This document shows, in pieces, positions 336 through 38,525 of a stretch of DNA of 39,022 bases. Position 1 is the first letter of the stretch; each line of letters opens with the position of its first letter. The notes beneath the pieces are model-generated. The model worked only from the letters and a program-made list of their open reading frames with translations, was not told the origin of the DNA and searched no databases. Position numbers and translations under genes: made by a program. Source of the DNA: Candidatus Bathyarchaeia archaeon (GTDB taxonomy: Archaea > Thermoproteota > Bathyarchaeia > Bathyarchaeales > Bathycorpusculaceae); NCBI GenBank assembly GCA_049516875.1, contig JBEKSS010000015.1, positions 1 through 39,022 of the forward strand, written 5' to 3'.

Positions 336-750
336 TACTTTTCAAATGTGTTTGATTGCATAAAAGTTTTTTGCATGCGCACATCTTCCTGTTCTAGATT
401 CTACCAAAATGCCAGTAAATTGCTCGCAAAAAGGGCGCAGAAAAATCCTTGTAGGCACAGCCTCTGGCACTGAAACCAAATGCCTACAGCTTTTGTTTTC
501 TAAACATCTGTAAGGAACCACAATAGTGGCTTGTTTTATTTGTTTCATCAAGATTGTTGCAATTTGACAGACAGATCCCCTTTGTCTCATAAGTCAAAGC
601 TTCAAGAACTTAAGCATGTATTGACGCAGGTGCTATTACAGGAAAAGAAAAAAAGAGGGAGTTGCGGGTGACATCGCCACTGCGGTGTAGCGCGCGCGTC
701 GTCTCGCGTTGCAGGCTTTCGGATTTCCTTCGTGTTAAGAATGAGAGGTT

Positions 751-1863
751 TTATGAAGCTGTGTCTGAGGAAGAGTAGGCTTCTTCCCCAGATTGGCTTA
801 AGTCAAGCCCCTGTTCCTCTTCTTCTGGTGTTACTCTCAGCTTAGAGAATCTGTTGACGATTTTTAGGAGCACGAACGATACGAAGAAGCTGGTTCGGAT
901 TTCCATAGAACAGCCCATTCGCGCCAGCAGAGTTCACTGTAATTGTTGCAAACAGGCCCGTGGCTATGGAGCCCCATATTCCGCTTACGCCGTGGCATGC
1001 AAAAACGTCGAGTGTATCATCCAGACGTGTGCGCGCTCGCCATGTCGAGACCAAGTTTGATAGGACCCCTGCGACCAGACCTATGACGATTGCTGAGGCA
1101 GGAGTGACAAAACCCGAAGCAGGGGTGATTCCTACGAGTCCGCAGACGGCGCCGATTGCAATTCCCGTTGCAGACGGCTTGCCCTTCACTAGGGTATCCA
1201 TGATCATCCAGCTGACTGCCGCGGCTGATGCTGACAAGTTAGTTACGACAAAAGCGCTTACGGCAATTGGGCTTGCAGACAAGGCACTGCCTGCGTTGAA
1301 ACCGAACCATCCGAACCACAATAGCGCTGCTCCCAAAATCACGTATGGGACATTGCTTGGTTTTCCCTCTATTTTCTCCCGCTTAATTCTCGGTCCCACG
1401 ACGATGGCTGCGGCCAAAGCGGTAACTCCGCGTAGACTATGGTTGACCAGAGTATGACAAAGATGAGCAGCGAACGAAACTTTATTCGTTCAGCGAACGC
1501 TCCCACGATCAACGCGGGCGTAATAGCCGCGAACATCAGTTCAAAAGCAAAGTAGAGCAGCTCCGTGATTCCAGGCGCATTATACTGCACGGGAAGAACT
1601 GTCGTCACGCCAACGTTGTTCAACAGCACTTTGTCTAGGTTTCCAATGTATCCGCCAATAGATGGACCGAAAGCAAGGCTGTAGCCCCAAAGGGTCCACA
1701 CCAAACCTACGACGGCGAAGATCGCAAAGCATTGCATTATCGTGTTGGAAAGGTTCTTTTTTCTAACAAGGCCCCCGTAGAAGAATCCCAAGGCAGGCGT
1801 CATAAGCATGACGAGCCCAGTAGCCATCAACACCCAAGACGTATCTCCCGCGTTTACCGACAT
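751..1863 (-). pseudogene. amtB: Ammonium transporter AmtB, disrupted by two internal deletions/frameshifts
   Basis: ORFs 1369-1884 (GDTSWVLMATGLVMLMTPALGFFYGGLVRKKN) and 842-1417 (LWFGWFGFNAGS, DDTLDVFACHGVSG), plus a C-terminus in another frame (LKIVNRFSKLRVTPEEEEQGLDLSQSGEEAY, stop 751-753). The conserved HWVWGGGW...DFAGG.VVH segment is missing at ~1430. Confidence 0.88.
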
Positions 1864-1953
1864 TTTCCTTCCTTCTCCAATCATTCCAGCCAGTGCAGAA
1901 ACTTTTTTGTGTCTCTATTTGTTATATATAGCTTTCGAGCGCGCTGCGCGCGC

Positions 1954-2115
1954 ACGGTCAAACTGAAGATTATGTCTTGAGTGCGGGATTGTCCGTATAT
2001 CCACAACCTTCTGAACACTATTCCCCTGTAAGAGACTAATGAAAACCTCCAACGTACGAGTCGAATGTCCGGCAGTAAGAATAGCATTCGCCGCTTCGAG
2101 CTCGACTTCATTCAT
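1954..2115 (-). pseudogene. DUF488-family N-terminal fragment truncated at a GCGCGC motif
   Basis: TAGHSTRTLEVFISLLQGNSVQKVVDIRTIPHSRHNLQFD matches the DUF488 N-terminus. Similarity stops at GCGCGCGC 1946-1953. Confidence 0.75.
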
Positions 2116-2414
2116 TGTATCTGCGCCCTTTACTTAGAGCCTATCAGTGACAAATACAGACAAGCGCGCGCGTTCCTCTTCTTGGGACACGTTCTCTCAA
2201 CCAGTATATTCTTTACGCCTTTTCTTTTTTGGCACAATCCGCTTCTGTGCGTCCTTCTCTGGGATGTATTCGCTTTGTTTCTCTTCATTCCCTTCATTGC
2301 TCATGTTTTCACTAGACTGTTCTATCTTCTTGGTTGTTCTATAAGTTTTCCGCTTTGTTAGAAGTTCGAAGGTTTTTATACACAATTGAAAGACATTAAC
2401 ATAGGGGCACACAG

Positions 2415-3007
2415 TTGGATAGATTTAGTGAAGTCATAGTTGGCGTGATAATAGGAGTTGTAACGGCAGTTATCGCTACCGCCCTCACTTTCTACCTTAG
2501 GGACTACTTGAAAGAAAAGGCAAAATTCAAAAAGTTTAAGGAGAAACTGGAACAGATTGCGGGCAAGAACGCTACAATTATTATCCCCGATATTGGTCAA
2601 GTCGAAATAACCGAAATCAATAAACAAGGAATAACGGTGAAAAATGAATTATGCACTACTTTCATACCGATGGAAAAATGCTTCGAACCAATATTGCTTT
2701 GCCCGTTGAGAACTACGAAGAATTACTAAAAATAACACTCAGAAAGAACGTTGAACAATCTCTTGACGCTGTTTTTCCCCCGCTCATGGAGAAGTTGAAA
2801 GAAGTCTTCGTGAGAGAATTTCTTAAGGATGATAGCGAAGTGAGTGCAATATTGGCTGTCAAGGTAAGAGGGGAAATGAAGGAGCAAGGCTATCAGGTCA
2901 AAGAATTATCAGAAGAGAAAAAAGTGACTTTCAGACAGATAGCGGAAAAAATGAATGAAGAAGAGAAGGATGGACAAAAATCCCAGCCAAAGGGAAAAAA
3001 GGCTTAG
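2415..3007 (+). pseudogene. Membrane-anchored hypothetical protein, frameshifted
   Basis: Overlapping ORFs 2415-2729 (N-terminal TM helix) and 2651-3007 join by a frameshift near the A-run at ~2673. Confidence 0.55.
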
Positions 3008-3411
3008 GGTGATAGTATCAGTCTCATAGAGCTAGTTATACTTGCTTTCGTAGGTTTGCTTATTGCGTTAGGTGCTAATACGCTGATTTGGTCAATTACA
3101 CGCAAAACGCAAAAGTCGTCCTCAATTAAACAGAAACAGATTATAATTTTCGCTTTGAGTCTGATAGCATACACATTGGCTTTGAGCATAATACTTTCTA
3201 TTCTTCCTAGATGATGCTTGACCTACTATCCACACGCCTTTGTCCTAGTCAGCACGCTTTAGAAAAAGGTCTGGCTCTAACTCAAAAATCAGTCTGAGTG
3301 AGCCTTCCTATTTTTATCTAGTCGTGCAGAACGCGCGCTTTGTCTTGGCGTCCTACAGTTCTGTGAAAATGTTTATTAAGTCTTAATATACACCTAAGCA
3401 CTTGACCAAGA

Positions 3412-3591: not shown

Positions 3592-3827
3592 ACTCTTGAT
3601 TCGTTCAGTTATTGATTAGCGCGCGCGCTTGTTTGTCAACACAAGTCCTATGGTCTGATATTGTATGCCTCAAGGAAGAAATTGTCAGTTAATGGTTCAA
3701 TGGCTATACCAAGATTCTTAACCATTGCTTTGAAGAGTTCGAGAAGCTTTTGATTTACTTCTTGGGTAGTTCGGGTTGGTCTCATTGCTATCTGGTGAAA
3801 CGCCATCAAAGTTCCAGCTGAGGCAGA

Positions 3828-4338: not shown

Positions 4339-4526
4339 TAGCGCGCATGCCTGTTCCGAAAATGGTTAAAAATGGTTTTACTTCCGTTCTGCACACTTCT
4401 GCTTGTTCGAGAAGGCTGGTTGCCGCAAGGAATTCAGGAACAAATGCGAAGTCCAAAACTGTCCCCAAATCGCAAAAGGCGAATAAAAACCATTTTTGGC
4501 CAATTTAGGAACACACATGCGCGCTA
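4339..4526. mobile_element. MITE-like inverted-repeat element, copy 1 (188 bp)
   Basis: ~41-bp imperfect TIRs: TAGCGCGCATGCCTGTTCCGAAAATGGTTAAAAATGGTTTT versus reverse complement of the right end TAGCGCGCATGTGTGTTCCTAAATTGGCCAAAAATGGTTTT. The interior is homologous to 11408-11592. Confidence 0.85.
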
Positions 4527-4790
4527 TTAATTCAAATTCACAATTCTAGGAACCCAAACATGTTTTTCATTTCTCAGGTATTGAACAAACAGTAAAGCTT
4601 CTTCGTTGATCAAAGTTTCAATTTCCTGACGCTTACCCATCCTCACCCTTGAAACATCAACCTTGCTCTGAAAGAGCCGATTCAAGCTTTTGGCTAAACT
4701 GTTCGTCAAAGAATCATTAAGAAACTCTCTCTTACCCTTCCTATTACTTGAATAGTTTTCATACTTCATAACGAAATCGTTCTTGCCAAG
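4527..4790 (-). pseudogene. cas1: C-terminal remnant resembling stand-alone archaeal Cas1 (casposase-like) endonuclease
   Basis: KNDFVMKYENYSSNRKGKREFLNDSLT...FQSKVDVSRVRMGKRQEIETLINEEALLFVQYLRNEKHVWVPRI resembles, from recall, the C-terminus of Cas1 proteins annotated in Bathyarchaeia. Catalytic core absent; not verified by search. Confidence 0.62.
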
Positions 4791-4888: not shown

Positions 4889-4902
4889 TTAGCGCGCGCT
4901 AA
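4889..4902. repeat. Perfect 14-bp palindrome TTAGCGCGCGCTAA (full form of the junction motif)
   Basis: Read directly. It equals the two termini of the MITE-like elements fused with a GCGC overlap. Confidence 0.85.
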
Positions 4903-6023: not shown

Positions 6024-6347
6024 ATGAAAGAGTATATTCAGATATTCACAACGACTGGAAGAAGGGAAGATGCTGAAAGAATAGCGCAGGTCTTGACACA
6101 GAAGAGACTCGCAGGCTGCGTCCAAGTAATCGCCAACCTGTCGAGTACGTACTGGTGGAAAGGCAAGATCGAAAAGACCGAAGAATGCCTTTGTCTCATC
6201 AAGAGCGAAAAGACTCTCTATGAGCAGGTTGAGAAAGTCATCAAAGAAATCCATCCCTACGAAATACCAGAAATCACGGCTGTACCCATCGTGGCTGGAA
6301 GCAAAGAATACTTCAGATGGCTTGATCAGGAACTCAGAGCGCGCTAA
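6024..6347 (+). CDS. cutA: Divalent-cation tolerance protein CutA
   Basis: RLAGCVQV, STYWWKGKIEKTEE, IHPYEIPEI motifs. Its stop codon lies in the motif AGCGCGCTAA. Confidence 0.93.
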   Translation: MKEYIQIFTTTGRREDAERIAQVLTQKRLAGCVQVIANLSSTYWWKGKIEKTEECLCLIKSEKTLYEQVEKVIKEIHPYEIPEITAVPIVAGSKEYFRWLDQELRAR

Positions 6348-6915: not shown

Positions 6916-6968
6916 ATGGTCTTTAACCCGTCCAGAGCGCGCGAGATAACATCGGTATACAATGCGCG

Positions 6969-11407: not shown

Positions 11408-11592
11408 TAGCGCGCATGCCTGTTCCGAAATTGGCTAAAAATGGTTTTTGTTCGCTTCTTGCGTTTTTGGGTCGGTTTTGGGCTTCGCATTTGTTCTTCA
11501 TTTCTTTGCGGTAACAGGCCTTCTCGAACGCGTAGAAGTGTGTAAAAACGAATTAAGACCATTGACCATTTTAGGAACACGCATGCGCGCTA
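11408..11592. mobile_element. MITE-like inverted-repeat element, copy 2 (185 bp, opposite orientation to copy 1)
   Basis: Ends TAGCGCGCATGCCTGTTCCGAAATTGG...CCATTTTAGGAACACGCATGCGCGCTA. The reverse-complemented interior matches copy 1 (acacttct..gttcgagaaggc..gaacaaatgcgaag). Confidence 0.85.
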
Positions 11593-27272: not shown

Positions 27273-27359
27273 TAATCAAAGGTGTCGGCGTGTTGTGTTT
27301 CTTATTGGTTGCAGATAGGTTCATATTGTTGTCGCGAATATTGTGTTGTTGGCGATTTC

Positions 27360-27781: not shown

Positions 27782-27954
27782 AATTAATTCTCTCCTGATG
27801 AACCCCACATTCTGAAACGCTCATTTTCCTAAAAGTTTCGGCATACTGAGTTTCTCACGTTGGAATCGAATCACTAGTGTGTCTTCTGTTGCCGTGCAGA
27901 TTAAAGATTTCTGTCTTGTGCGTTTTGGCTTAAGGAAATTTGCACCCAACATCA

Positions 27955-27984
27955 TTTTGCGGAAAAGTTATAGCTGAATCGAAA
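27955..27984 (+). repeat. Cassette-junction/promoter repeat, copy 1
   Basis: ttttgcggaaaagttatagctgaatcgaaa. Confidence 0.9.
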
Positions 27985-28018
27985 CAGTCTACGTTGTTGG
28001 GCAAGCGAGGTGTTATGA

Positions 28019-28486
28019 ATGGTTGGTATAACGGAAATCTCAGCAATAGTTGCAGCAGTGGGCGTGTTGGTAGGTGTTGTCTTCACTGTATTACAGCTGA
28101 GAGACTTGGTCAAAACGAGGCAGACAGACCTTGTTATGAGGCTGTATTCAACTTTTGGCAGCAAGGAGTTTCAGGATGCTTGGACAAGAATAGAATCCAT
28201 CGAATTCAAGAATTACGATGAATACGTGAAGAAATGTGGCTTGGGAGACTATGCCCAATGTGCTACATTCTTTGAAGGAACGGGCGTGCTTCTACAGAAG
28301 AAACTGATAGACATTAATCTGATAGATGCCCTATTCAGCGTACCCTTGAAACATATGTATGAAAGAATGAAGCCTATTATAGAAGGAAACAGGGAACAAT
28401 TTCACGACCAGAGAGTATTTGAGAATTTTGAGTACGTGTACAACGAAATGCAGAAAAGAGAGCAGAAGCTTCAACCAACAGCTTAG
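28019..28486 (+). CDS. Membrane-anchored paralog family member 1 (DUF4760-like, tentative)
   Basis: ITEISAIVAA.GVLVGVV...RQTDLV...FFE..GVL...FEY.YNEM.KREQ shared with 32313 and 37128. Confidence 0.85.
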   Translation: MVGITEISAIVAAVGVLVGVVFTVLQLRDLVKTRQTDLVMRLYSTFGSKEFQDAWTRIESIEFKNYDEYVKKCGLGDYAQCATFFEGTGVLLQKKLIDINLIDALFSVPLKHMYERMKPIIEGNREQFHDQRVFENFEYVYNEMQKREQKLQPTA

Positions 28487-28660
28487 ATTTGTGTGTGTGG
28501 GATAAAACTTTACCTCCTCCTCCTTCCTCCTTTTTGACGACGAATGACGACGCTAAACCCAAAAATAGCACGCGCGCCGATTTCTCTCTTTTAGGTTGAC
28601 CGAGTTTTCCCTTTTTCTTGGCGAGAACAACCACGCTTGAAACAGCAATTGATGCAATGA

Positions 28661-28816
28661 CTAAAGCCATTGCGCGCGCGCACTGACTAACTGCCGGAAG
28701 CATCGTTCGCATAGTTCCTGTCCGGATATTTGAATAATCTCAGATTCTGGGAGCATCTTTCCACACTTATCACAGGCTAATTCCCTTGCAATTGGCGTGT
28801 TTTTTACGTTCTTCAT
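28661..28816 (-). CDS. Small CxxC..CxxC zinc-finger protein (51 aa)
   Basis: Manual translation MKNVKNTPIARELACDKCGKMLPESEIIQISGQELCERCFRQLVSARAQWL; its C-terminus crosses the GC motif. Confidence 0.55.
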   Translation of the reverse strand: MKNVKNTPIARELACDKCGKMLPESEIIQISGQELCERCFRQLVSARAQWL

Positions 28817-28920
28817 AATTTGGATCGTTCATTTCTAGCGCTTAAACGACATTCCGAGGCCTTCAATATATCAAAGTGCGTTCGCCAGCTGGTATTCCAC
28901 GGTATTGAAGGCTAAAGGGG

Positions 28921-29200
28921 ATAACAACGACGACTAAGACGACACAAACAACTATACAACACGGAAACAACACACAAACCCATACAAACACCCAACACTA
29001 TACAACCTCACAACACCATACAAACACTAATACAAACACTGGATACAACTACACGACACGACAACAACTACACTAACTATAACACCATTACAAACACCAT
29101 GCGACACACGCAACACCATACACACAAACAAACACTTTAGCGCACGCGGACAAACCATAGAACAAAACAACACATCAAACCGCGACAACAAACCAATACA
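28921..29200. repeat. A/C-rich low-complexity tract with degenerate CAACACCATACAAACAC repeats
   Basis: ~280 bp strongly depleted in G and T on the + strand; no ORF. Confidence 0.85.
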
Positions 29201-29291
29201 AGCGCGTGCTAGGGTAGATGTACGTGATGAGGATAATGATGATTAAGCGCGCGCTGGAACAATGCTTGCGCGTTCAGCACACACCTATTTT

Positions 29292-29525
29292 CTATTCAAT
29301 CGAGTTGACTACTAACTGATCGGCGAATATGTCTGTGACGCCGTTGTTAAGGTTTATGACGCGAAATTCAAGTCCGTAACTCAAGTAGCTTGGTGTAGTG
29401 AACGCTAACTGGAAGTCTTGCCAAGTGTTAGAGGATGTAAAGTCATTGGCCTTGATGATCATTAATTGAATTACTGTGCCAGCATTGTAGCAGACATCAA
29501 CACGAACAACATTATCAAGCTTTCC
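29292..29525 (-). pseudogene. Startless C-terminal fragment of a beta-rich secreted protein
   Basis: LDNVVRVDVCYNAGTVIQLMIIKANDFTSSNTWQDFQLAFTTPSYLSYGLEFRVINLNNGVTDIFADQLVVNSIE*. Confidence 0.55.
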
Positions 29526-29973
29526 TGTAACGATTAAGTCTAATGTTGTCCAAGGCTACAAGGATTTCTGGAACGACTGTATCCTCGCTTTAGTTGTTCC
29601 AGACGAGAATGTTTTCTATGCACAAAGAGTGAGCGACTTGCAAATTAAGGAGAAATATGACCCTGCCACCGATTTCTGTGGAATACGCGAATTCTTCCAA
29701 GATATAGACGAATACGAATTTCTGCACTACAAAACCTTGACGAGGAACTTGCTGTTAAACTTGAAACAGATGAAGTCTCGCAGGTATTAGGTAACCTTCA
29801 GAAGCGCTCGCTAACCACTATGATATTTCTCAATGTAGTCTAAGTGCGCGCGTTCTCAATCGAGGAAATTGGACAGCTATCAAACTGAAATAACGAAAGA
29901 GTGCGCCGCGGCAAAGTTTTATCCCAACCCCAATTCTGGTTCTGAATTTCCGATTCATAAACGATAAGTTAAA

Positions 29974-31188
29974 TCAATTGGGATACTTAGAGCGCGCGCG
30001 TTTGCTGATTCTCAATTTGTTTTTCCGTACGAGATTGAATATGAAAGCAAGCGTTACCGCAACATAACCATAGAAGAGGCTGATGCTTAGGGAGAGGAAC
30101 AAGGTCGAAGGAACTGATGCCCAAGGCGCTTGGGCTGCAAGTCCCATTGTCAGATTAAGGAGCGAGCTGCTCAGCGGAAGCATTAAGACCCCCAGAATAA
30201 TTCCTTCTGCAATGTATTGGCAAACTGCTAATCTTTGTCTCACTTCGATTAGGGCTTTTTCAATAATACTCACGATTGAAAACATGCCCGCCGCAGTCAA
30301 AAGGATAAGAATCAGGGTTTCAGCTAAAGTTGTCCTAGTAGTAGTTGGGACTGGAATGGTGAAAGTGAAGGTTACGGCAAATACGAAGAGCGATAAACAG
30401 ACTGAAAGTCGATATTCCAGTCTGTCCGGCTTTATGAAGGGAAGACTACCAACAAGAGCATAGCAGATTCCCAACACCACTATGATCAAGTTGGTCGCAG
30501 AAGCTGGTCTAAAGAGAATCATTTTGCAGTTTAGACTTGCATACTCCACTCCCGCCAGTAGTCCCTCTGAAGCCGTCGACAATTCATAGGTTATGTTGGA
30601 AAATTTCGGATACGTTCCTCCTGGTGTTGCAGGGTCGGTTGTCCAGTCAAATTCCCCTACCCGAGAAGCTAGGTTAAACCATGTGTTAGTCTGGTTGATT
30701 ATGGAGCTGGCCGAAACGTTCCATTCCCGAACGCGAAGGGGTAGCACAAACGTAATGTTTAGCATGTAACTGTCAAATGGATAGAGTTGTGTCGGACCAA
30801 CAAGTTGAAAGCTGGTTGTCACGTTGCCTGCATAATTGTTAGGTCCCGGGAATCCCATCATCGAAGAGAATAAAGGAATTTGTACCCCACCATATATTGG
30901 CCCGATCGAGGCGCCTTCGTACCATTGCTGAAGAAAGGGCGCGCGCGCCAAAAATGGGTCGGTTAGGTTGTACGGACAGGCGCTAACATAAATCTCAACA
31001 TAAGCGTCGAATGCGCGTGCGCTCCAGTCTATGCGCGTTAGCCAAACGGAAAACCGGAAAGAAGTGCTTTCTGTTTGCGCTTCAGACTTTTCGGTCGACT
31101 GAGAAAGGCAGCTTGAAACAAAACCCAAAGAGAACACCGTTATCAGAACGAGGGCAAATACAACAGATGGTGTATACCTTAGACCCAT
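29974..31188 (-). CDS. Multi-pass membrane protein with pentameric ligand-gated ion channel (Pro-loop)-like architecture
   Basis: Signal peptide, beta-rich ectodomain containing LYPFDSY, then M1-M2-M3-like helices (..LPFIKPDRLEYRLSVCLSLFVFAVTF..TLAETLIL..). The gene is confident; the family call is tentative. Confidence 0.6.
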   Translation of the reverse strand: MGLRYTPSVVFALVLITVFSLGFVSSCLSQSTEKSEAQTESTSFRFSVWLTRIDWSARAFDAYVEIYVSACPYNLTDPFLARAPFLQQWYEGASIGPIYGGVQIPLFSSMMGFPGPNNYAGNVTTSFQLVGPTQLYPFDSYMLNITFVLPLRVREWNVSASSIINQTNTWFNLASRVGEFDWTTDPATPGGTYPKFSNITYELSTASEGLLAGVEYASLNCKMILFRPASATNLIIVVLGICYALVGSLPFIKPDRLEYRLSVCLSLFVFAVTFTFTIPVPTTTRTTLAETLILILLTAAGMFSIVSIIEKALIEVRQRLAVCQYIAEGIILGVLMLPLSSSLLNLTMGLAAQAPWASVPSTLFLSLSISLFYGYVAVTLAFIFNLVRKNKLRISKRARSKYPN

Positions 31189-31510
31189 ATTACATAATAA
31201 ACACGTTTAGAAGCTTAAACGTTTTTCAGCGCGCGAAGGTTTATAACGTCAGATGGGCGTCGTCGCCCGTAGTCGTTGAGGGAGGAGGAGTTTAAAACTT
31301 TACCCACATACTTAAAAAACACTTGCAGTGATTAGAAACGCGCCCAAAACGATGAAAAGTCGCATTCGCCACCAAGTTGCTGATTTGCTTTTGCGAATCA
31401 AAACTTCAAAAACGACTCCAAGAAACATTGCAGCTATCCCAGAGAATAGGAGCCCTGCATTCATCTATCCTGCCCTAAATCCAGTAGGCAAGAACTATGA
31501 TATCTGCGTT

Positions 31511-31570
31511 TTCTTCTATCAGTCCTTTGAGCCAATTTTGGTTTTGCGGAAAAGTTATAGTTTAACGAAA
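31511..31570 (+). repeat. Cassette-junction/promoter repeat, copy 2 (long form)
   Basis: ttcttctatcagtcctttgagccaattttggttttgcggaaaagttatagtttaacgaaa. Confidence 0.88.
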
Positions 31571-31663
31571 GCATCATTGAGACGTTAGCCGAGAACTGTA
31601 AACGACAGGAGTCGAAGACATATTGAACGTAGAAATACCAAAAGAAGGATTGGGGGAAACGAC

Positions 31664-31897
31664 ATGAAGAATACTGAATGCACAATCTATATCACAACTA
31701 GGCACGGCAAGACACAGAGTTACCGCAAAGGGAAGAACGGCTGGACACAAACCAGTTCAAACGGTATAGTCCGCCCCCTTACCGCAGAACAACTGTTGTC
31801 ACACATCTTGCCACCACTCGCAATCGGACATCTTAGCGTTAGGGTGGAACCCGACAATAGAGGAATAAGAAATGATAAAAAGGAGAGTAACTCTTAG
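31664..31897 (+). CDS. Small hypothetical protein
   Basis: 77-aa ORF (..TAEQLLSHILPPLA..) downstream of repeat copy 2. Confidence 0.65.
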   Translation: MKNTECTIYITTRHGKTQSYRKGKNGWTQTSSNGIVRPLTAEQLLSHILPPLAIGHLSVRVEPDNRGIRNDKKESNS

Positions 31898-31976
31898 AGG
31901 GGCGGGACACATCTCAAACATGGAAACTCCGAGAGAATTGAATGAGGCTGTATTGAGTTTTCTTGTGAATGTCTGA
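31884..31976 (+). pseudogene. C-terminal fragment of an alpha/beta hydrolase
   Basis: RVTLRGAGHISNMETPRELNEAVLSFL, the catalytic-His region only. Confidence 0.6.
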
Positions 31977-32207
31977 GATAACACAGTTATGTTTTTTATG
32001 TTGAACAGTTTAGACATTTGGTTTTTAAGTCAGTTTGACCCGTTGACTACTTCTTCCTTTGAAAACATTCCATGCAGATAGCAACTATCTTGACGTTATG
32101 AATGGGTTGACGCATGACTAGACCTTTCGCGAATACAGTTACGTAACCTAATGGTTTTCCACATTTTTGGCATCTAACTGGTTCAGCGTCATTCATTTCT
32201 TCACCAC

Positions 32208-32277
32208 TAGAGCAATTCTCTATCAGTCCTTTTAAGCCAGTTTTCGGTTTTGCGGAAAAGTTATATCAGAACCGAAA
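32208..32277 (+). repeat. Cassette-junction/promoter repeat, copy 3 (long form)
   Basis: tagagcaattctctatcagtccttttaagccagttttcggttttgcggaaaagttatatcagaaccgaaa. Confidence 0.9.
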
Positions 32278-32312
32278 GAGACTGCGTTGTTAGGCAAACG
32301 GAGGTATTATGA

Positions 32313-32789
32313 GTGATTGGTATAACGGAAATCTCCGCAATAGTTGCAGCAGCAGGCGTGTTGGTAGGTGTTGTTCTGACTGTTCAGGAACTTAGACATC
32401 TTGTAAGGCAGAGACAAACAGACCTTGTAACTAGACTCTCCTATGATATCTCTACAAACAAAGAATTCTTAGAAGCGTTCGTGGATACTCTTGAGGTTGA
32501 GTTTAAAGACTACGATGACTTTGTGAAGAGGTTTGGAAGACCCATTTCTAGAAACCAGGTTCCCATGTCGTTCATGATGATGGGCAACTTCTTTGAGCAA
32601 ATTGGGGTTCTTTTCAGAAATAGGCTCATAGACGTTTCTCTGATTAGTCAACTTTTTCCCATAGACATAGTGTGGGAGAAGATGAAACCTCTTGTGGAAG
32701 GTATGAGAAAGGAATATCATAACCCAGGTTTTTTTGAGTGGTTTGAGTATCTCTACAATGAAATGAAGAAAAGAGAACAACGACAATAG
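32313..32789 (+). CDS. Membrane-anchored paralog family member 2 (DUF4760-like, tentative)
   Basis: Same conserved N- and C-termini as 28019 and 37128. Confidence 0.85.
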   Translation: MIGITEISAIVAAAGVLVGVVLTVQELRHLVRQRQTDLVTRLSYDISTNKEFLEAFVDTLEVEFKDYDDFVKRFGRPISRNQVPMSFMMMGNFFEQIGVLFRNRLIDVSLISQLFPIDIVWEKMKPLVEGMRKEYHNPGFFEWFEYLYNEMKKREQRQ

Positions 32790-32822
32790 AGCATTCTTCT
32801 ATCAGTCCTTTAGAGCCAGTTT
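32787..32822 (+). repeat. 5' half of the junction repeat, overlapping the stop codon
   Basis: tagagcattcttctatcagtcctttagagccagttt. Confidence 0.8.
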
Positions 32823-32945
32823 GACCCTTGATTTTAGCGTTTTCATGTTCTAGGCTTTCAACATATTCCTTATGTGTCTCGGTCTTCACTTTGTTCTTCT
32901 GGCGATATGATATGTCAATCCGAAATCCTACCAAAAGCAGGGTCT

Positions 32946-33134
32946 TCGGGAGCAATTAGTGTCGTTGGCTATACGATCGTACAACCAAGACTGCAAAAGG
33001 CAACAGGGGGAGTTGATACCTGCGGCGTTCATAACCTCCACGGGATGCCAGGCTTATTTGGCGGATTAATCGCATTAACATTGGTTGCGTCTCCATTATG
33101 GCAACTTACTGGCGTGATGATAGTTGTGGCTTGA
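32946..33134 (+). pseudogene. Rh-type (Rh50) ammonium transporter fragment
   Basis: GAISVVGYTIVQPRLQKATGGVDTCGVHNLHGMPGLFGG, the Rh-family DTCGVHNLHGMPG signature. Confidence 0.75.
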
Positions 33135-33495
33135 GGAAAGAGGCTACTGAAACGGCAGTGTAAGCACGATTCAGCATGCAGCCCATTATCTCTGCAAAAG
33201 AGGGGATATAGCGGAAATCAGGGCATAATAGGGTACGTATATAGGTAGTATCGGAATCGAGTATACGGTCGCGTCAATTCCTTTTCAAGAATCTATCATA
33301 GGATGGCTGTATCTTTTTTGAGACGTCTTTATTTTTTCTTATTTGCTTTTTTAGCGCATTGGACACTGCACAAACCAAACCAACAACTACGATTGTACTG
33401 CGTGCGCTTACCCGTGGCTCTGGTCTCGGCATGCTAGATCTAAACCAACTATTGGCATGTCCCTCAAGACCCACGCATGATGGTTCATGAGAGCG

Positions 33496-34191
33496 CTACT
33501 TCAAAGCCTTTTCTATGACTTCCACCGAGAAGGGTTTTCCATGTCCAGGGTAGACCGTTCTAACACCAAGTTTCAACAATTTTCTCCAGCTTTCCTTCAC
33601 CTTCTCCATATCGTCGACAAAGACCGGTAGCCCTGGATTGTGCCTCAACGGAAGCTTGTTCATCGCAAGATCTCCGACAAAAGCCTCTCCTGAATCCAAG
33701 AGCACACTAAGTGAACCTATAGTGTGTCCAGGAGTGTAGACGACTTGCCCATGAATTCCATAATTGGCTAAATCCGCGCCTGTGTCATCAATGGTGACGT
33801 CTACGGCGCAAGTCGCAACTTTGGAATGGCGTAGGGCGACAATCGAATTGGACATCCCTGCAGCTATCGAGCTCCAAAGCCCTGTGCCTTTGAGCCTGTG
33901 TCCTGTGGTATTCCATTCTCCAGTTTCGAGGCACACCTTGTCCAGTTGATGCATAGCGATTCTGGCTCTTGTGATTTCTTTTATGTCCTTGGCAGAACCC
34001 ATGTGGTCTGGGTGCCCATGCGTAATAACATTTAGCTTGATGTCTTGGGGTTCCATCCGAATACTTTTCATCGCTCTTACGAAATCGGTTTTTTTGCCAG
34101 GTACACCAGCATCAATCAATATGACGCCTTGATCTCGGATTACGTAACAATCATTAAACCCAAGAGAAAACGGAAAAATCTCCACGTTCAT
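33496..34191 (-). CDS. MBL-fold metallo-hydrolase
   Basis: ILIDAG, THGHPDHMG, TPGHTIGS, FVGD, YPGHG; ATG 34191. Confidence 0.92.
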   Translation of the reverse strand: MNVEIFPFSLGFNDCYVIRDQGVILIDAGVPGKKTDFVRAMKSIRMEPQDIKLNVITHGHPDHMGSAKDIKEITRARIAMHQLDKVCLETGEWNTTGHRLKGTGLWSSIAAGMSNSIVALRHSKVATCAVDVTIDDTGADLANYGIHGQVVYTPGHTIGSLSVLLDSGEAFVGDLAMNKLPLRHNPGLPVFVDDMEKVKESWRKLLKLGVRTVYPGHGKPFSVEVIEKALK

Positions 34192-34265
34192 TTGAACGAC
34201 CTGCCTGCGCGGCAGGTGTATGAGGTTTCGGATATAAGACTTTACCCCCAAACCCAAAAAAGACG

Positions 34266-34293
34266 TTGCGGAAAAGTTATAGCTGAACCGAAA
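34266..34293 (+). repeat. Cassette-junction/promoter repeat, copy 4
   Basis: ttgcggaaaagttatagctgaaccgaaa. Confidence 0.9.
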
Positions 34294-34319
34294 GTAACTG
34301 TGTGGATTGGTGAGTTGAG

Positions 34320-34865
34320 TTGCTTGAAGGTAAAAATGTGAATCTGAGGGTAATGGAGAAAGAGGACCTACCACAAATTACAGAATGGTTTAACAACACT
34401 GAATTCCTCGGTGAATACATGGGTCCGTTTGCAGTGCGTAGGGCTGAGATGGAGAAGGCATGTTTTCCTGAGGTTGACCCTTTTGAGCGGAAATGGTTTT
34501 TCATCGAGAAGAAAGACGGAAGCAAAATTGGTTACATTTGGCATTCTAACATGCTTAATCCCTATATGAAAATGCTGGAACTAGGCTATGGTCTCGTTCC
34601 AAGTGAGAGAGGAAAAGGCTATTGCACTGAAGCTGCACAGCTAATGGTGGACTATCTGTTTCTCTCGAAGGATATTACACGAATAATAGCAACAACCCAC
34701 ACCAAAAATGTAGCTTCTCAGAAGGCCCTAGAAAAAGTTGGGTTCAAAAAAGAAGGCACTTTGAGAAAAACCTATCTACTCAGAGGAGAATGGACAGACA
34801 TGTTCATCTTCAGCATTCTCAGAGAAGAATGGAAAGAACCAAAAATACTCACAAAAACCATTTGA
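34320..34865 (+). CDS. RimJ/RimL-family GNAT acetyltransferase, paralog 1
   Basis: ELGYGLVPSERGKGYCTEA, NVASQKALEKVGFKKEG. Confidence 0.92.
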   Translation: MLEGKNVNLRVMEKEDLPQITEWFNNTEFLGEYMGPFAVRRAEMEKACFPEVDPFERKWFFIEKKDGSKIGYIWHSNMLNPYMKMLELGYGLVPSERGKGYCTEAAQLMVDYLFLSKDITRIIATTHTKNVASQKALEKVGFKKEGTLRKTYLLRGEWTDMFIFSILREEWKEPKILTKTI

Positions 34866-34963
34866 AGAAAGCCAGTCTCCGATTCCACAGAAGAGCTATA
34901 GCTTGCGAAAGACCTCTTGTGCTTGGGTTTTAAAAAGGAAGGTCGCCATCATATTCTTTCATT

Positions 34964-35548
34964 ATGCATTATTCGTTGGTTCATTATCCGAAGTTTGAAA
35001 GGAAGACTGAGGAGAATATCGAGGCTTTTCGTAGAAAATATGATTCATTCGTAGATTGTTGGAAACCACACATACCGTTCATATTCCCAGTCCCTTGTAA
35101 TGAGATTGAAGAAGGAAAATTCACAGAGCACGTTGAAACCGTATTGAAGAAATGGAAACCTTTCCACATTCAAATAGGAGGCTTTACGAAATCTTGGGAC
35201 CACTGGTTGCTTCTTCTAATGAAAAAAGGAAATGAAAAAGCAATTGCCTTGCATGATGAACTGTACACTGGCATTTTGTCGCCTTACCTAAGGAGAGATA
35301 TTGAGTATATTCCCCATATTGGTATTGGCTTGTTTGTTAAAAAAGACGCTGGTTACAATGCTCTTGACCCAAGAATAGTTGACTTTGATGCGAAACTGTA
35401 TTCCCAAGCATTGAAAGAAGCGGAATCCCTCAGGATAGACAGCTTTGACACTGTTGATAGACTGGTTCTGAACAAAGTAATCTTGAAAGTACACACGTCT
35501 CTCCACATAGAACGAACGGTCGTCAGTTCAAAAGAAATAAAGCTATAA
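34964..35548 (+). CDS. 2H phosphoesterase / 2'-5' RNA ligase family (YjcG-like)
   Basis: FRRKYD, two HxT-like motifs (PHIPF, PHIGI), LHDELY. Confidence 0.78.
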   Translation: MHYSLVHYPKFERKTEENIEAFRRKYDSFVDCWKPHIPFIFPVPCNEIEEGKFTEHVETVLKKWKPFHIQIGGFTKSWDHWLLLLMKKGNEKAIALHDELYTGILSPYLRRDIEYIPHIGIGLFVKKDAGYNALDPRIVDFDAKLYSQALKEAESLRIDSFDTVDRLVLNKVILKVHTSLHIERTVVSSKEIKL

Positions 35549-35561
35549 TACGCCCACGAAA

Positions 35562-35629
35562 TAGAAGACACTTCTATCAGTCTTTTAAGCCAGTTTTCGG
35601 CTTTGCGGAAAAAGCTATAGCTGAACCGA
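35562..35629 (+). repeat. Cassette-junction/promoter repeat, copy 5 (long form)
   Basis: tagaagacacttctatcagtcttttaagccagttttcggctttgcggaaaaagctatagctgaaccga. Confidence 0.9.
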
Positions 35630-35686
35630 CTTAAACAGTTGGATTTGTCTCTATATTGAGGAAAGAGCAAGGAGGCGATATTCATC

Positions 35687-35986
35687 ATGGAAAGGAGTTT
35701 AGAAAATCAACCCTTCAAGAACCGTGAACACGTAATGGCTGAAATCAGAAGATGCGCGTTGATGGGTCTCATTTGTCAATATCTTAGCTTCCTATTCGTT
35801 GCGTTAGGAATCATTGGTGATGCCCTAAACGTTAAACTTGGCTTAGAGTCAATATCTTGGTTTCTGCTGGCAATTGTTGCTGGTCTGAATGCCATAATTG
35901 GTCACACGCATACAGTTGTAGCTAAGCATCTGCTCGGCATAGAAGCTGAAAGCAAAAAAGGCAAAATTGAACTACTTAAGCAGTAG
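35687..35986 (+). CDS. Small 2-TM membrane protein
   Basis: 99-aa ORF with a GGAGG RBS, located between repeat copies 5 and 6. Confidence 0.7.
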   Translation: MERSLENQPFKNREHVMAEIRRCALMGLICQYLSFLFVALGIIGDALNVKLGLESISWFLLAIVAGLNAIIGHTHTVVAKHLLGIEAESKKGKIELLKQ

Positions 35987-36002
35987 GCATTAAGACTGGA
36001 CT

Positions 36003-36072
36003 TAGAAGACTTCCATCAGTTTTATTAAAGCCACTTTTTTTGGTTTTGCGGAAAAGTTATAGCCGAACCGAA
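36003..36072 (+). repeat. Cassette-junction/promoter repeat, copy 6 (long form)
   Basis: tagaagacttccatcagttttattaaagccactttttttggttttgcggaaaagttatagccgaaccgaa. Confidence 0.9.
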
Positions 36073-36091
36073 CAGATGGAGTTTTCGGAGA

Positions 36092-36442
36092 TTGTATTTG
36101 ACTGAGTTTATGGTCGTTACTTGGGCTGTAGTTCAGGGTCGTGTCGAACAACACGAAGAGAGCGTAAAGAGAATCATGGCTTACTGGCATAAGAACGCAA
36201 AAAGGTTCAAGCTAAGGTCTCTGAGATACTATTCACAGGCAATAGGCGGTGACCCATTCACTCTTGGTCGAGTGATGGTTTACGAATATGATTCTCTTGC
36301 AGACTGGGAGTATTTCGAGAAGGAAATGGAAAAAGACAAGAAAGCCATGGCGTTAAAAGACCAACTCTTTGCCAATATTGACCTGAAAACCCGCAGAGTA
36401 GTGGAGTGGCAGGATAAACAAAGAAGCTCTTGGCTAGAATAG
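36092..36442 (+). CDS. Small dimeric alpha/beta-barrel (NIPSNAP-like) protein
   Basis: VMVYEYDSLADWE pattern; located between repeat copies 6 and 7. Confidence 0.65.
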   Translation: MYLTEFMVVTWAVVQGRVEQHEESVKRIMAYWHKNAKRFKLRSLRYYSQAIGGDPFTLGRVMVYEYDSLADWEYFEKEMEKDKKAMALKDQLFANIDLKTRRVVEWQDKQRSSWLE

Positions 36443-36453
36443 CGACACATGCG

Positions 36454-36480
36454 TTTGCGGAAAAGTTATAGCCGAATCGA
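36454..36480 (+). repeat. Cassette-junction/promoter repeat, copy 7
   Basis: tttgcggaaaagttatagccgaatcga. Confidence 0.9.
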
Positions 36481-36507
36481 CTTGAAATGTTGGGTTGGTG
36501 AGTTAAC

Positions 36508-37044
36508 TTGCTTGAAGGTAAAAATGTGAATTTGAGGATTATGGAGAAAGAGGACTTGCCACTAATTGCAGAATGGTTCAACAAGCCTGAGGTCTTTGGT
36601 GAATACAATCCTCTACATCAGGTGTCCAGAACAGAAGCAGAAAAAATGTTTGAGAACCCTCATGAAGAGAAGTCATTCATCATAGAGAAAAAGGACGGAA
36701 GCAAGATTGGTTTCATAGGTCATTTTTATGTCCTACATGTTGCGGGCAAGCAACTAGAAATAGGCTATAGCTTAGTGCCAAGTGAGAGGGGAAAAGGGTA
36801 CTGTACCGAAGCTACACAGTTAATGGTGGATTACTTGTTTCTCTCAAAAGACACAATGCGTATTCAAGCCCAAACTGACCCAAGAAATGTAGCCTCTAAC
36901 AAACTCTTAGAGAAAGTTGGGTTTAAGAAGGAAGGAACACTTCGTAAAAGCTTTTTCATGAGAGGAGAATGGGTAGATTCCTATATCTACAGTATCCTGA
37001 GAGAAGAATGGAAACAACCAAAAATACTAACAAAAACCGCTTGA
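36508..37044 (+). CDS. RimJ/RimL-family GNAT acetyltransferase, paralog 2
   Basis: Near-identical ends to 34320 (MLEGKNVNLR.MEKEDLP ... SILREEWK.PKILTKT). Confidence 0.92.
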   Translation: MLEGKNVNLRIMEKEDLPLIAEWFNKPEVFGEYNPLHQVSRTEAEKMFENPHEEKSFIIEKKDGSKIGFIGHFYVLHVAGKQLEIGYSLVPSERGKGYCTEATQLMVDYLFLSKDTMRIQAQTDPRNVASNKLLEKVGFKKEGTLRKSFFMRGEWVDSYIYSILREEWKQPKILTKTA

Positions 37045-37047
37045 AGA

Positions 37048-37089
37048 AAGCCAGTTTTTGGTTTTGCGGAAAAGTTATAGCCGAATCGA
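37048..37089 (+). repeat. Cassette-junction/promoter repeat, copy 8
   Basis: aagccagtttttggttttgcggaaaagttatagccgaatcga. Confidence 0.9.
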
Positions 37090-37127
37090 GATAGACTACA
37101 TTGTTTGGCAATTGATAGGTGTTATGG

Positions 37128-37598
37128 ATGGTTGACATAACAGAGATTTCAGCCATTGTTGCAGCAGCAGGCGTGTTGGTAGGTGTTGTCTATTACATTC
37201 TGGATATGAGACAACAGATGCAGATTAGACAGACTGACATGGTCATGGGGTTATACGCCACATTTGGAAGCACGGAGTTTCAAAAAGCGTATCAGAAGGT
37301 AACAAACTTGGAATGCAAGGATTATGCCGATTATATGAAAAGATACGCAAAAGATGTTGAAGTTAGGGGTGGAATGTGGACTGTGACAATTTTCTTTGAG
37401 GGAGTAGGAGTGCTCGCCATGAGAAAGCTGATAAAGATGGATTTGGTAGACTTCTTGTTCAGTTCCGTCATTATACGAACTTGGGAAAGAGTGGCACAAT
37501 TCGTGAAGGGATTTAGAGAGGATGAGAAAAGCCCTTCAACTTGTGAATGCTTTGAATATCTCTACAATGAAATGAAGAAAAGAGAGCAACGAAAATAG
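37128..37598 (+). CDS. Membrane-anchored paralog family member 3 (DUF4760-like, tentative)
   Basis: MVDITEISAIVAAAGVLVGVV ... FEYLYNEMKKREQRK; followed by a degenerate repeat half (37596-37630). Confidence 0.85.
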   Translation: MVDITEISAIVAAAGVLVGVVYYILDMRQQMQIRQTDMVMGLYATFGSTEFQKAYQKVTNLECKDYADYMKRYAKDVEVRGGMWTVTIFFEGVGVLAMRKLIKMDLVDFLFSSVIIRTWERVAQFVKGFREDEKSPSTCECFEYLYNEMKKREQRK

Positions 37599-38039
37599 AG
37601 TATTTCTCTATAACGGTTTCAAACCAGTTTGTTAAAAGGCGAGAGTTTAACGAATTCGTTAATTTCAAGCTTCAGTCTCGAAATTACTCGCATGGTCAAA
37701 AAGGCGAGAGTTACTCGCTGTTTCGGGAGATATCTCCCACACCTTAGTTTTTTGTACTATTTTTCCAGTTGTATTCTTGTCCACGGGCCAGAAGATAGAC
37801 TCATCTACGGCTGTCTATGGCCTTGAGGGGAAAGAATGATCAAGAAGAAAAACGGTGAATTAACGGTATAGCATAGCGACTTTGATACAATGATTGAGTG
37901 TCAAAGGTGAATTAATTAATCAGTTGAGTAAAAAGGGAAAAAGTGGATCAGAGACTAAAGACGATAAGAATAAGAGTTGATTCAGACCTAAGATAGGTTG
38001 TTAGACCCTTCGCATCGGGTTTTGATAGGTGGCAAAATC

Positions 38040-38525
38040 ATGAAGCGAAGATTGGCAATTCTTGCAAGACTGCTGGTCATTGCACTTGTTATCCTTGCTC
38101 TTTTCCTCGTTTATTCAGCTGTATCATGGGTGTACGTCTCTTCGGCGCCAACTGTGACGACTGGCGCAGAGCTTTTGATAACGGTTATTCTCTGCCTTTC
38201 TGTTAGTTTATGGGCAGCATTCGTAGATAAGGAGGCGAATCGTTGGGAAGGAGTTTTGGTTTTTGTCGGATTGTTTTTTGGTTCATTGTTGTTTTTATAT
38301 TCATATGTTTCGGAGTCTTTTAGTTTGGATTGGATGATGATGACACAGCAGACTCCTGCGAGTATTAACAGTGTATCCATTGTAGTAGATTGTCTGTTGG
38401 CAATAACCATAATCCTTGCGCTTGCGGCTATTGCAGTTTTCATTCTGGTTCTCAGGCGTCGCGCGCGTGATGTACAAGGCAAACCTATCTTGGTCGAAGC
38501 TGCAAGACTCTTTCAAGAAACTTGA
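38040..38525 (+). CDS. 4-TM membrane protein, 3' end possibly replaced at the GC motif
   Basis: Four hydrophobic segments; the reading frame crosses CGCGCGCG 38460-38467 into unrelated sequence. Confidence 0.6.
   Translation: MKRRLAILARLLVIALVILALFLVYSAVSWVYVSSAPTVTTGAELLITVILCLSVSLWAAFVDKEANRWEGVLVFVGLFFGSLLFLYSYVSESFSLDWMMMTQQTPASINSVSIVVDCLLAITIILALAAIAVFILVLRRRARDVQGKPILVEAARLFQET

Follow-up and report, generated by a model that had tools for sequence, protein, structure and literature searches.

IS5 inserts at a 4-bp target, YTAR/CTAG, and IS1397 of Escherichia coli inserts into PU/REP elements (palindromic units, or repetitive extragenic palindromic sequences). A DDE transposon necessarily duplicates its target. 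A preprint reports integrons, with their arrays of exchanged units, in Archaea (bioRxiv 10.1101/2022.02.06.479319). Herein, we analyze short palindromic runs of alternating G and C in a 39,022-bp stretch of DNA (the window), which is the entire contig C15 of a Candidatus (Ca.) Bathyarchaeia metagenome-assembled genome (MAG; G000), together with a family of insertion sequences (IS) that inserts into such runs and with its MITEs (miniature inverted-repeat transposable elements). Bathyarchaeia are abundant, uncultured archaea of peat and sediment. On balance, we consider it probable that a genus-confined, IS5/IS1182-like transposon and its MITEs prefer the (GC)3-5 palindromes as integration sites and leave them behind, and that breakage and repair at these sites put the runs at homology borders.

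Alternating-GC runs in the window and across the genus

Maximal alternating-GC runs of at least 6 nt were collected in the window, which has a GC content of 45.7%. Thirty-two were found, 10 beyond those listed in a first-pass annotation of the same DNA, whose 13 runs of at least 8 nt and nine 6-7-mers were all located where it had placed them. GCGCGCGC occurs 15 times, against a mean of 0.30 and a largest value of 2 in 100 dinucleotide-preserving shuffles, and GCGCGC occurs 47 times, against a mean of 4.97 and a largest value of 13 in the same number of shuffles. The excess over chance that the annotation had estimated, with fewer than one run of at least 8 nt expected, was borne out by these counts. 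It had also placed almost all of the runs at gene or fragment boundaries. In the present analysis, 25 of the 32 runs are not fully within called genes, in a window of which 72% was called coding by a crude open reading frame (ORF) caller, and the runs beside the P-type ATPase gene and at the end of cutA lie as it had described them (Table 1). Structured RNA was not seen at the runs, with no Rfam match at gathering score and no tRNA in the window.

The motif is a property of the genome and of the genus, not of the window alone. The 2.43-Mb G000 contains 1123 alternating-GC runs of at least 6 nt, with lengths of 6 nt (n = 503), 7 nt (n = 204), 8 nt (n = 240), 9 nt (n = 112), 10 nt (n = 56) and longer (n = 8). 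Genes were called by a crude codon-usage caller (2305 genes, 81% coding), and 770 of the 1123 runs are not fully intragenic. The density is 1.65 per kb in intergenic DNA and 0.18 per kb in genic DNA, which is a difference of about nine-fold, and the enrichment and intergenic bias proposed for the window are thereby found genome-wide. GCGCGC is present at 3.4 times its zero-order expectation and is the top over-represented hexamer under a Markov-4 model; its density ranges from 0.17 to 1.4 per kb between contigs. Among the intergenic 8-mers, GCGCGCGC was counted 182 times versus 16 for CGCGCGCG. The intergenic dinucleotide repeats of length 8 number 198 for GC and 8-24 for each of the other dinucleotides. 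This phase bias, and the fact that no other dinucleotide is expanded, indicate that the runs are not the product of generic microsatellite slippage.

The sequence beside the runs carries a weak signal, with T at the first outward position in 52% and A at the second in 32%, and background composition at the positions past them. TA stands beside (GC)4 runs at 31-33% per side, the two sides being independent of each other, and the complete palindrome TA(GC)4TA is found 23 times in G000. Any flank common to another run was seen for 75 of the 1123 runs. The biggest flank family is the transposon arm described below (47 flanks), and by this shared-flank count more than 90% of the runs are solo.

The distribution among genomes was determined by counting GCGCGCGC. 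It occurs 168-646 times per genome in all five genomes of the window's genus (g1), and 30 times or fewer in 24 of the other 26 genomes from the family and order. G018 and G024 are the exceptions, with 227 and 53 copies. The reversed-pattern controls are also high in these two (209 and 26), and the excess there is probably that of simply GC-rich genomes. Three more relatives, found through individual loci, have 164-210 copies of TAGCGCGCGC each, and one more distant relative has 9. The transposon-arm motif occurs in 8-70 copies in the same five g1 genomes and in 0-3 copies in the other 26. The run excess and the transposon arms are confined to the same single genus.

The transposon family and its insertion target

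The family consists of a DDE insertion sequence of about 1.1 kb, IS5/IS1182-like, plus MITE derivatives of roughly 180-300 bp. An intact copy was found in G000 (C7:36804-37906). Its 307-aa ORF (L076:327-1250) carries DDE_Tnp_1 (6.1e-14) and DUF772 (8.6e-9) domains, which both exceed their Pfam cut-offs. In the closed genome G033, 56 arms and a 1.08-kb copy (389080-390159) were found; the transposase of this copy is split into two ORFs with the DUF772 and DDE_Tnp_1 domains. Relatives of the transposase number 1767 at an E of 1e-5 or better; the best 120 of these 1767 are 81-100% identical, many of which lie on contigs of about 1.1 kb, and one is labelled Ca. Bathyarchaeota archaeon. A DDE_Tnp_1 transposase (here with an N-terminal DUF772 domain), terminal inverted repeats and a short target duplication mark the IS4/IS5/IS1182 superfamily, to which the element belongs by these features. 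It is placed at the superfamily level only, nearest to IS1182 and IS5 and below every NCBIfam cut-off (IS1182, 80.6 bits vs 270; IS5_4, 65.5 vs 140; IS5_3, 36.6 vs 110). Self-BLAST of G000 for active multi-copy IS gave few repeats of at least 400 bp, and MAG assemblies usually lose such copies.

Seventeen paired MITEs of 174-480 bp were identified in G000. They are short, non-coding and present in multiple copies, and their arms are of the same type as on the transposase-bearing copies. The window holds three MITE-like elements and two solo arms, each starting with GCGCGC and then an arm of type ATGCCTGTTCCGAAAATGG. Among the metagenomic copies, arms of the form TG(G/C)CTTGTCCC.AAA... stand at both ends of 62 of 80. 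The arms at the transposon ends are 20-45 nt long, and the solo runs have none. Exactly GCGCGC directly precedes 43 of the 66 arm-like matches in G000. Counted from the side of the runs, about 47 of the 1123 touch an arm and 1076 are solo.

Two other candidates for the autonomous element were rejected. The 1971-bp segment G000 C1:76833-78803 has a winged-helix ORF and unknown ORFs only, and it is not multi-copy. The winged-helix ORF (131 aa; HTH_45, 4e-10), at C1:78411-78803 (L041:1912-2307), ends within a transposon arm, and one full copy of it was found. A transposase of the IS630/Tc1/mariner type was rejected on the finding of no DDE_3 in G000, G002, G003 and G033; the sole match lies on a small G004 contig without arms. 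This contig (C58; L068, 1927 bp) has its first 127 bases repeated at its end, as in a circular or tandem molecule, and its IS630-type DDE_3 transposase is GC-rich in AT-rich surroundings. The contig bears no relation to the MITE arms and could be a contaminant or a small replicon.

The insertion target was read from the 80 metagenomic copies. Of these, 62 have both arms, 56 of the 62 are distinct, and 40 have intact hexamers on both sides. Among the 56 distinct insertions, the four bases adjoining the arm are GCGC in 55 on the left and 53 on the right, and the next two bases outward are GC in 50 and 48, respectively. The position past the hexamer is A in 40 on the left and 26 on the right. Among the 40 insertions with intact hexamers, only 4 show a direct repeat of the two bases outside the hexamers, fewer than the shuffle mean (6.8), and 3 have TA on both outer sides. 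These two counts led to the rejection of another reading, in which the hexamer is the transposon end and TA is duplicated; its basis was that 33 of the 43 G000 arms, counted by eye, are preceded by TA-GCGCGC. With no repeat outside the hexamers, and with target duplication required of a DDE transposon, the duplication must therefore lie within the run.

Occupied and MITE-less alleles coexist in the metagenome contigs at the site of the window MITE at 4339-4528. Contigs of the metagenome sequencing runs X2 and X8 join window position 4342 to 4519 and read TAGCGCGCGCTA. The X2 joint has a depth of 123, and its flanking contigs 268-295; the shorter side of the X8 joint is 83 nt. Subtraction of the 8-nt empty allele from the two hexamers (6 + 6 - 8) leaves 4, which indicates a duplication of GCGC. 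The run-length pairs at the insertions are 6+6 in 25 of the 56, 6+7 in 7, and 8+6 or 6+8 in 7, and these pairs indicate that (GC)4-5 is in most cases entered at its middle, with a small number of copies at plain or nearly plain GCGC (e.g. L114, L120 and L157). The element thus inserts into (GC)4-5 runs and, as judged from the length of the empty allele, duplicates GCGC; its copies hence lie between two GCGCGC hexamers. Another joint in X2, from 2169 to 2964, was not used, with a shorter side of 30 nt and possibly another organism as its source. Other joints inside MITEs in the metagenome contigs are variant MITE copies elsewhere in the metagenomes.

Homology borders and other features of the window

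Segments of the window match six relatives at scattered places with 79-98% identity. In comparison, identity is 70-81% for a core gene, that of histidyl-tRNA synthetase, and about 85% across 400 kb aligned with G004. The higher identity of the segments than of the core indicates that they were horizontally exchanged.

Sixty-four homology breakpoints in the window were collected by hand and compared with random intergenic positions (2000 draws). Nine lie within 2 bp of a run (null mean 1.6, maximum 8) and 12 lie within 10 bp (null mean 3.9, maximum 11). A known breakpoint within 10 bp is found for 13 of the 32 window runs, and for many segments the genomes searched offer no homologue. The comparison of G000 with 400 kb of G004 gave 158 alignment ends, of which 11 are no more than 5 bp from a run (null mean 3.6, maximum 9; 1000 draws). 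The coincidence of breakpoints with the motif, which the first-pass annotation had proposed as a test, is seen in both sets. The runs are also biased toward accessory DNA: against G004, the 206 kb that can be aligned contains 47 runs (0.23 per kb), and the gaps that cannot be aligned have 0.84 per kb. No pure run insertion in collinear DNA was found among these 47 aligned runs; at about 85% identity, alignments break in intergenic DNA.

The borders were then classed by our own reading of 25 alignments between the window and its relatives. The run is present in the window only, with the relative continuous, at four borders (698, 1946, 3341 and 22175). It is present in the relative only, with the window continuous, at seven (470, 12854, 22818, 28892 twice, 33493 and 34266). 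Both genomes have it at seven more (6339, 17602, 23398, 28676 twice, and both sides of 38460). The ammonium-transporter fragment is cut by runs at both of its ends in the window, and the relative G035 is uninterrupted at both. At 11 borders, the run is thus one-sided and the second genome reads on without a break, and recombination between two pre-existing sites is therefore not the source of these joints. By these alignments, the one-sided runs exclude conservative, integron-type site-specific recombination. Lineage-specific insertions in the core genome are bracketed by runs (e.g. G000 C3:85940-86519), and runs are also present at deletion joints there (C1:424034). At 6339, at least five genomes differ in the DNA that the run links to one shared right-hand segment; G033 carries a transposon arm at this site, and in G000 and G032 the run there is bare. 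The features of the window are collected in Table 1.

Table 1 Alternating-GC runs, MITEs and solo arms of the window with their context and their comparison with relatives.
Feature	Position	Strand	Context	Comparison
GCGCGCGCG run	690-698		Left border of ammonium-transporter fragment	G035 without run; breakpoint 698
GCGCGC	1031-1036		Within ammonium-transporter coding fragment	
GCGCGC-T-GCGCGCGC double run	1939-1953		Right border of ammonium-transporter fragment	G035 without run; breakpoints 1938-1946
GCGCGCGCG run	2164-2172		Intergenic	
CGCGCGC run	3332-3338		Border of G035-shared segment	Homology from 3341; G035 without run
(GC)5 run, TA on left	3619-3628		28 bp past end (3591) of G035-shared segment	
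MITE, about 184 bp	4339-4528		Hexamers 4341-4346 and 4519-4524, TA outside both	MITE-less allele in X2 and X8
TA-(GC)4-TA palindrome	4892-4899		Form matching an unoccupied target	
GCGCGC at cutA end	6339-6344		Holds final codons of ORF 6024-6347 (CutA1, 5e-34); left border of TrmO-like segment	Right side same, left differs: G031, G032, G033, G001, G004
GCGCGCG run	6937-6943		Right border of TrmO-like segment in G001	12-nt run at equivalent joint in G001
MITE, about 181 bp	11408-11594		Hexamers 11410-11415 and 11585-11590	Left border of 4.8-kb block missing from G004 and G033
CGCGCGC run	12764-12770		Intergenic	Nearest breakpoint 84 bp off
GCGCGC	13621-13626		2 bp past P-type ATPase stop (13629-13631)	
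TA-(GC)4 run	16090-16097		7 bp upstream of ATPase ATG at 16082, near right border of 4.8-kb block	G004/G033 homology back at 16138-16174
Solo arm after TA-GCGCGC (16976-16981)	16974-17025	+		Breakpoint 16981 with G032
Second solo arm after TA-(GC)4 (17040-17047)	17038-17061	+	Repeat family D10	
MITE, about 302 bp	17601-17908		Hexamers 17603-17608 and 17899-17904	G004, G003 and G001 homology stops at 17602-17606
GCGCGCGCG run	22168-22176		Left border of segment 97% identical to G033	G033 without run here, with run at opposite end where window is continuous
GCGCGC run	23399-23404		Right border of HIT-gene segment	G035 run 12 nt further on
CGCGCGC run	28571-28577		Intergenic	
(GC)5 run	28672-28681		Left border of G004/G035-shared segment	GCGCGC in both relatives, other left partner
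(GC)4 run	29247-29254			No homologous segment in relatives searched
GCGCGCG run	29846-29852			
GCGCGCGCG run	29992-30000		Two-member flank family	Left flank (reverse-complemented) recurs at G000 C1:45718
(GC)5 run	30939-30948		Within 404-codon ORF without Pfam match	
GCGCGCG run	31229-31235			
CGCGCGCG run	38460-38467		Joins two segments	Each run-ended in different G035 contigs (L049, L050)
GCGCGC	38827-38832		Within short called ORF	

The units between the runs were confirmed to be mutually unrelated genes by a Pfam scan of the window ORFs. They include ammonium-transporter fragments, GNATs, CutA, a TrmO-like protein, a CDF transporter, Mrp/NUBPL, DUF6125, DUF1847, an amidinotransferase-like protein, a TMEM175-like protein, the P-type ATPase, OsmC, CGGC and others. 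The ammonium transporter lies in two broken pieces. Between 883 and 884, contigs from all four metagenome runs have 44 extra letters, and at 1430-1441 metagenome run X8 has about 105 letters versus 10 in the window. The two-piece transporter is not the population's sole form, since metagenome contigs carry extra letters there; the form in the MAG is a deletion variant or an assembly fault, and other population forms exist. A short tandem array of an 8-nt unit (GAACTGAT/GAACTAAT; repeat family D14) lies at 20016-20054, upstream of the ORF at 20182.

A second type of junction is found at 27941-37654. It is made up of a promoter-like repeat of 27-34 nt (TTTGCGGAAAAGTTATAGC.GAA.CGA, 8 copies; family D3) and a terminator-side repeat. 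Between these repeats stand single genes that share one orientation: three for DUF4760, two for GNAT, one resembling a 2'-5' RNA ligase gene and one with the metallo-beta-lactamase fold. Such units recur many times per genome in the relatives, with up to about 10 matches each, and many of the run-less homology borders in the second half of the window coincide with the promoter-like repeats.

Inverted repeats at 23640-23770 and 27154-27283 (96 nt, 90% complementary, plus 42 nt) surround a GC-richer block of 3.4 kb. The block contains genes for a B12-radical SAM protein, a peroxiredoxin and an AHSA1/SRPBCC protein and one unknown gene, with no transposase inside. A short repeat related to these inverted repeats also lies within the run-bracketed insertion at G000 C3:85940-86519. 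Three other lineage-specific insertions of G000 relative to G004, at C3:160492-170307, C1:259940-262115 and C1:393695-395216, have direct repeats at their ends (73, about 16 and 37 bp). Seventeen GC runs lie in the first of them, which is 9.8 kb long, and for two of the three insertions a run is found 4 bp away from an edge. These three look like integrated elements with att-type duplications.

Origin of the runs and comparison with described systems

In the transposon model, the element would enter the middle of a (GC)4-5 run, GCGC would be duplicated, and the copy would end up between two GCGCGC. Removal of the element would restore, shorten or lengthen the run. When both duplication copies are kept at excision, GCGC would become GCGCGCGC, that is (GC)4, which would now be a better target. 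The entry and exit of elements would make the runs hot spots of breakage. Ku-LigD would repair the breaks, deleting or capturing other DNA and leaving part of the run on each side, and this would put the runs at the edges of horizontally exchanged blocks and of gene fragments cut short. Such cycles of insertion and excision would have made most of the approximately 1000 solo runs, and end joining at the runs would have produced the deletions and captures.

The repair machinery was found by domain search. Adjacent genes on G000 contig C9 encode LigD_Prim-Pol (2.7e-82), Ku (2.3e-40) and DNA_ligase_A_M (1.1e-37), the last fused with LigD_N (7.9e-42), and are predicted to form a complete, bacterial-type Ku-LigD end-joining operon. 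Ku was found in six of the eight run-rich genomes searched (G000, G002, G004, G031, G032 and G033). Across 50-kb bins of G000, the numbers of arms and of solo runs are correlated (Spearman 0.41, p 0.003).

Several observations weigh against the transposon model. Ku was not found in G001 (77% complete) or in G003 (93% complete, with 253 GCGCGCGC), nor in the run-poor G034, and it is present in G010 despite just 7 GCGCGCGC; end joining is at hand, but it is insufficient alone to explain the runs. The MITE-less allele may be merely an unoccupied target, and insertion polymorphism rather than excision fits it too. A run is seen in neither genome at about 20 borders, which is about half of those inspected. 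At the two ammonium-transporter borders and at 22175, 22818 and 470, the continuous partner has no GCGC at the break, and in the related locus L035 a 9-nt run stands in place of about 490 bp of the DUF6125 gene where the window has no run. Simple duplication of a resident GCGC is not the source of runs at GCGC-less breaks, which would require further events, such as the capture or loss of DNA at a run that had been broken before. The arms are no closer to the solo runs than to random intergenic positions (median 451 vs 560 bp, p 0.34). With 1076 of the 1123 runs solo and this lack of fine-scale clustering, a recent local origin from elements is not visible. Runs of 12-14 nt, expected from the keeping of both duplications at an 8-nt run, number three in the genome. 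The TA flanks at about a third of the (GC)4 runs, independent by side, are not predicted by the model either.

The unexplained joints, the scarcity of 12-nt runs, the one-sided TA flanks and the absence of clustering make an independent origin of the runs the main rival. The runs would then be made without the transposon, for example as alternating-GC filler, self-complementary and synthesised or templated at ends during end joining, and the element would merely exploit them. This origin agrees with joints to arbitrary partners at which the other genome is continuous and has no GCGC, with the replacement in the DUF6125 gene, and with core-genome deletion and insertion joints that have runs on one or both sides. 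It also agrees with the solo state of nearly all runs and with the TA flanks, whose independence per side is expected from separate histories of the two sides. The PolDom/Ku/ligase operon is present, and the transposon clearly targets the runs. On the other hand, no description of alternating-GC addition by end joining or by a polymerase was found in our literature search, and neither a polymerase nor an end-joining system is known to us to add alternating GC. Addition by a telomerase-like enzyme or a retroelement was rejected, with no reverse transcriptase gene (RVT_1) in the five genomes searched. G010, with Ku and few runs, also speaks against filler synthesis. The runs and the arms have an identical genus distribution and scale together, which would be a coincidence unless the element is wholly run-dependent. 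Finally, the GC-phase and even-length bias (182 vs 16) fits the duplication of GCGC units better than free tailing. We regard an independent origin as possible, though only tentatively so.

It is doubtful, but worth stating, that the runs are the joints of an undescribed way of genome building, in which (GC)n tails anneal any ends, or a transposase moves anything that lies between two GCGCGC palindromes. Joint building of this kind would explain why some runs are one-sided, why gene fragments end at runs and how a single run can serve different partners. If true, it would give the genus a transposase- or end-joining-based counterpart of the integron.

Cassette shuffling by recombination at the palindrome is improbable. 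It would require a site-specific recombinase of a new kind, or a DDE transposase that uses any two GCGCGC as minimal ends. Some segments are run-ended at the same end in several genomes with a differing partner beyond (6339, 28676 and 38460). At 38460, the window has two segments in the order X-run-Y, which G035 carries on separate contigs, one as X-run-Z and the other as W-run-Y. In G001, the order of the segments between runs differs, and one of the joints has a run of 12 nt. Among genomes, these segments are also much closer to each other than the core genes. The 11 borders with a run in one genome only, however, are not a possible outcome of conservative recombination between two sites, and shared segments need not be run-ended at both ends in the same genome (22175/22818). 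No conserved sequence lies beside the run except A...T, and the transposon ends carry arms of 20-45 nt that the solo runs do not have. No recombinase or integrase family was matched among the 40 window ORFs scanned against Pfam, with the IntI search not extended to the rest of the genome. The first-pass annotation had proposed an integron-like capture system that uses the palindrome. Its mosaic stands, with the runs marking the borders and the breakpoint comparison positive; recombination at the palindrome is not supported, given the lack of an attC-like flank, of a recombinase among the 40 ORFs and of runs on both sides at 11 borders.

A host signal under selection (a terminator, a site for a transcription factor or chromatin protein, a Z-DNA element, or a methylation/restriction motif) would fit the nine-fold intergenic density, the somewhat higher density in convergent (183 runs in 79.8 kb) than in divergent (179 in 125 kb) intergenic DNA, and the shorter median distance to stops (122 bp) than to starts (175 bp), but it is very unlikely, with only 3 of 11 intergenic runs in G000/G004-alignable DNA kept and most runs in lineage-specific DNA, no fixed distance to starts or stops, the motif missing from 24 of the 26 sister-genus genomes, no cytosine-5 methyltransferase (PF00145) in G000, G001, G003 and G004 and one sub-threshold match in G002, and a run of 6-10 nt without a loop that cannot make a terminator hairpin. 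Restriction cutting at GCGC/GCGCGC with fill-in is only weakened by the PF00145 negatives, as other methylases and nucleases were not searched.

Should the transposon model be right, one transposon family with a 4-bp palindromic duplication has stamped about a thousand (GC)n palindromes across the intergenic DNA of a genus. The palindromes would tag the joints of horizontally acquired blocks and would be a simple marker for the borders of accessory DNA. It would be a rare prokaryotic case in which accumulated target and leftover sites can be read, probably owing to Ku-LigD, and a natural system in which to ask if a transposon is able to make and amplify the target that it prefers. In the literature searched, no description links the motif to Bathyarchaeia or to archaeal intergenic palindromes; subscription journals and supplements, with possible IS/MITE catalogues, lay outside the search.

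Integrons resemble the present locus in their arrays of unrelated, mostly single-gene units, exchanged among genomes, and in their recurrent border sequence. They differ in three defining features, and an integron was rejected on these. Their attC hairpins are about 55-140 nt long with R/L boxes, whereas the border here is a run of 6-10 nt with flanks at background; their integrase is a tyrosine recombinase that adjoins the array with attI and a Pc promoter, and no integrase family was matched in the 40 scanned ORFs; and the joints are non-conservative, with gene fragments truncated at the runs.

The excision footprints and filler capture of eukaryotic elements (Tc1/mariner, Stowaway and Ac/Ds) show short palindromic leftovers, deletions, captured DNA and a dependence on end joining, and the likeness holds in so far as elements are excised here, as we infer. 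Unlike the Tc1/mariner/IS630 elements, the present family has no TA duplication (3 of 40) and no DDE_3 in G000, and it is found in a prokaryote with bacterial-type Ku-LigD.

Closer likeness is found in the REP/RAYT system (REP-associated tyrosine transposase), with which PMC2817692 is concerned, and in IS1397-type insertion. In these as here, a short palindrome is present in hundreds across intergenic DNA, and a transposon inserts specifically into it. REPs are imperfect hairpins of 20-40 nt spread by a Y1 transposase (RAYT), in contrast to the perfect alternating-GC runs of 6-10 nt without a stem-loop. Membership in this system was rejected, with no Y1_Tnp gene in G000, G003 and G033 and runs too short for a hairpin.

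The IS5-family/PIF-Harbinger elements with Tourist MITEs such as mPing are likewise close to the present family and share with it DUF772 and DDE_Tnp_1 domains (here in the transposase), a length of about 1.1 kb, terminal inverted repeats, MITEs, and a 4-bp palindromic duplication. PMC4561436 deals with the repair of mPing excision sites via microhomology of the target duplication, which is the kind of repair invoked here. The differences are a transposase below the NCBIfam cut-offs, a target of GCGC inside (GC)4-5 instead of a TA-rich one, and the multiplication of the target motif itself to about 1000 copies per genome. By this comparison, the system works like a target-specific IS with MITEs.

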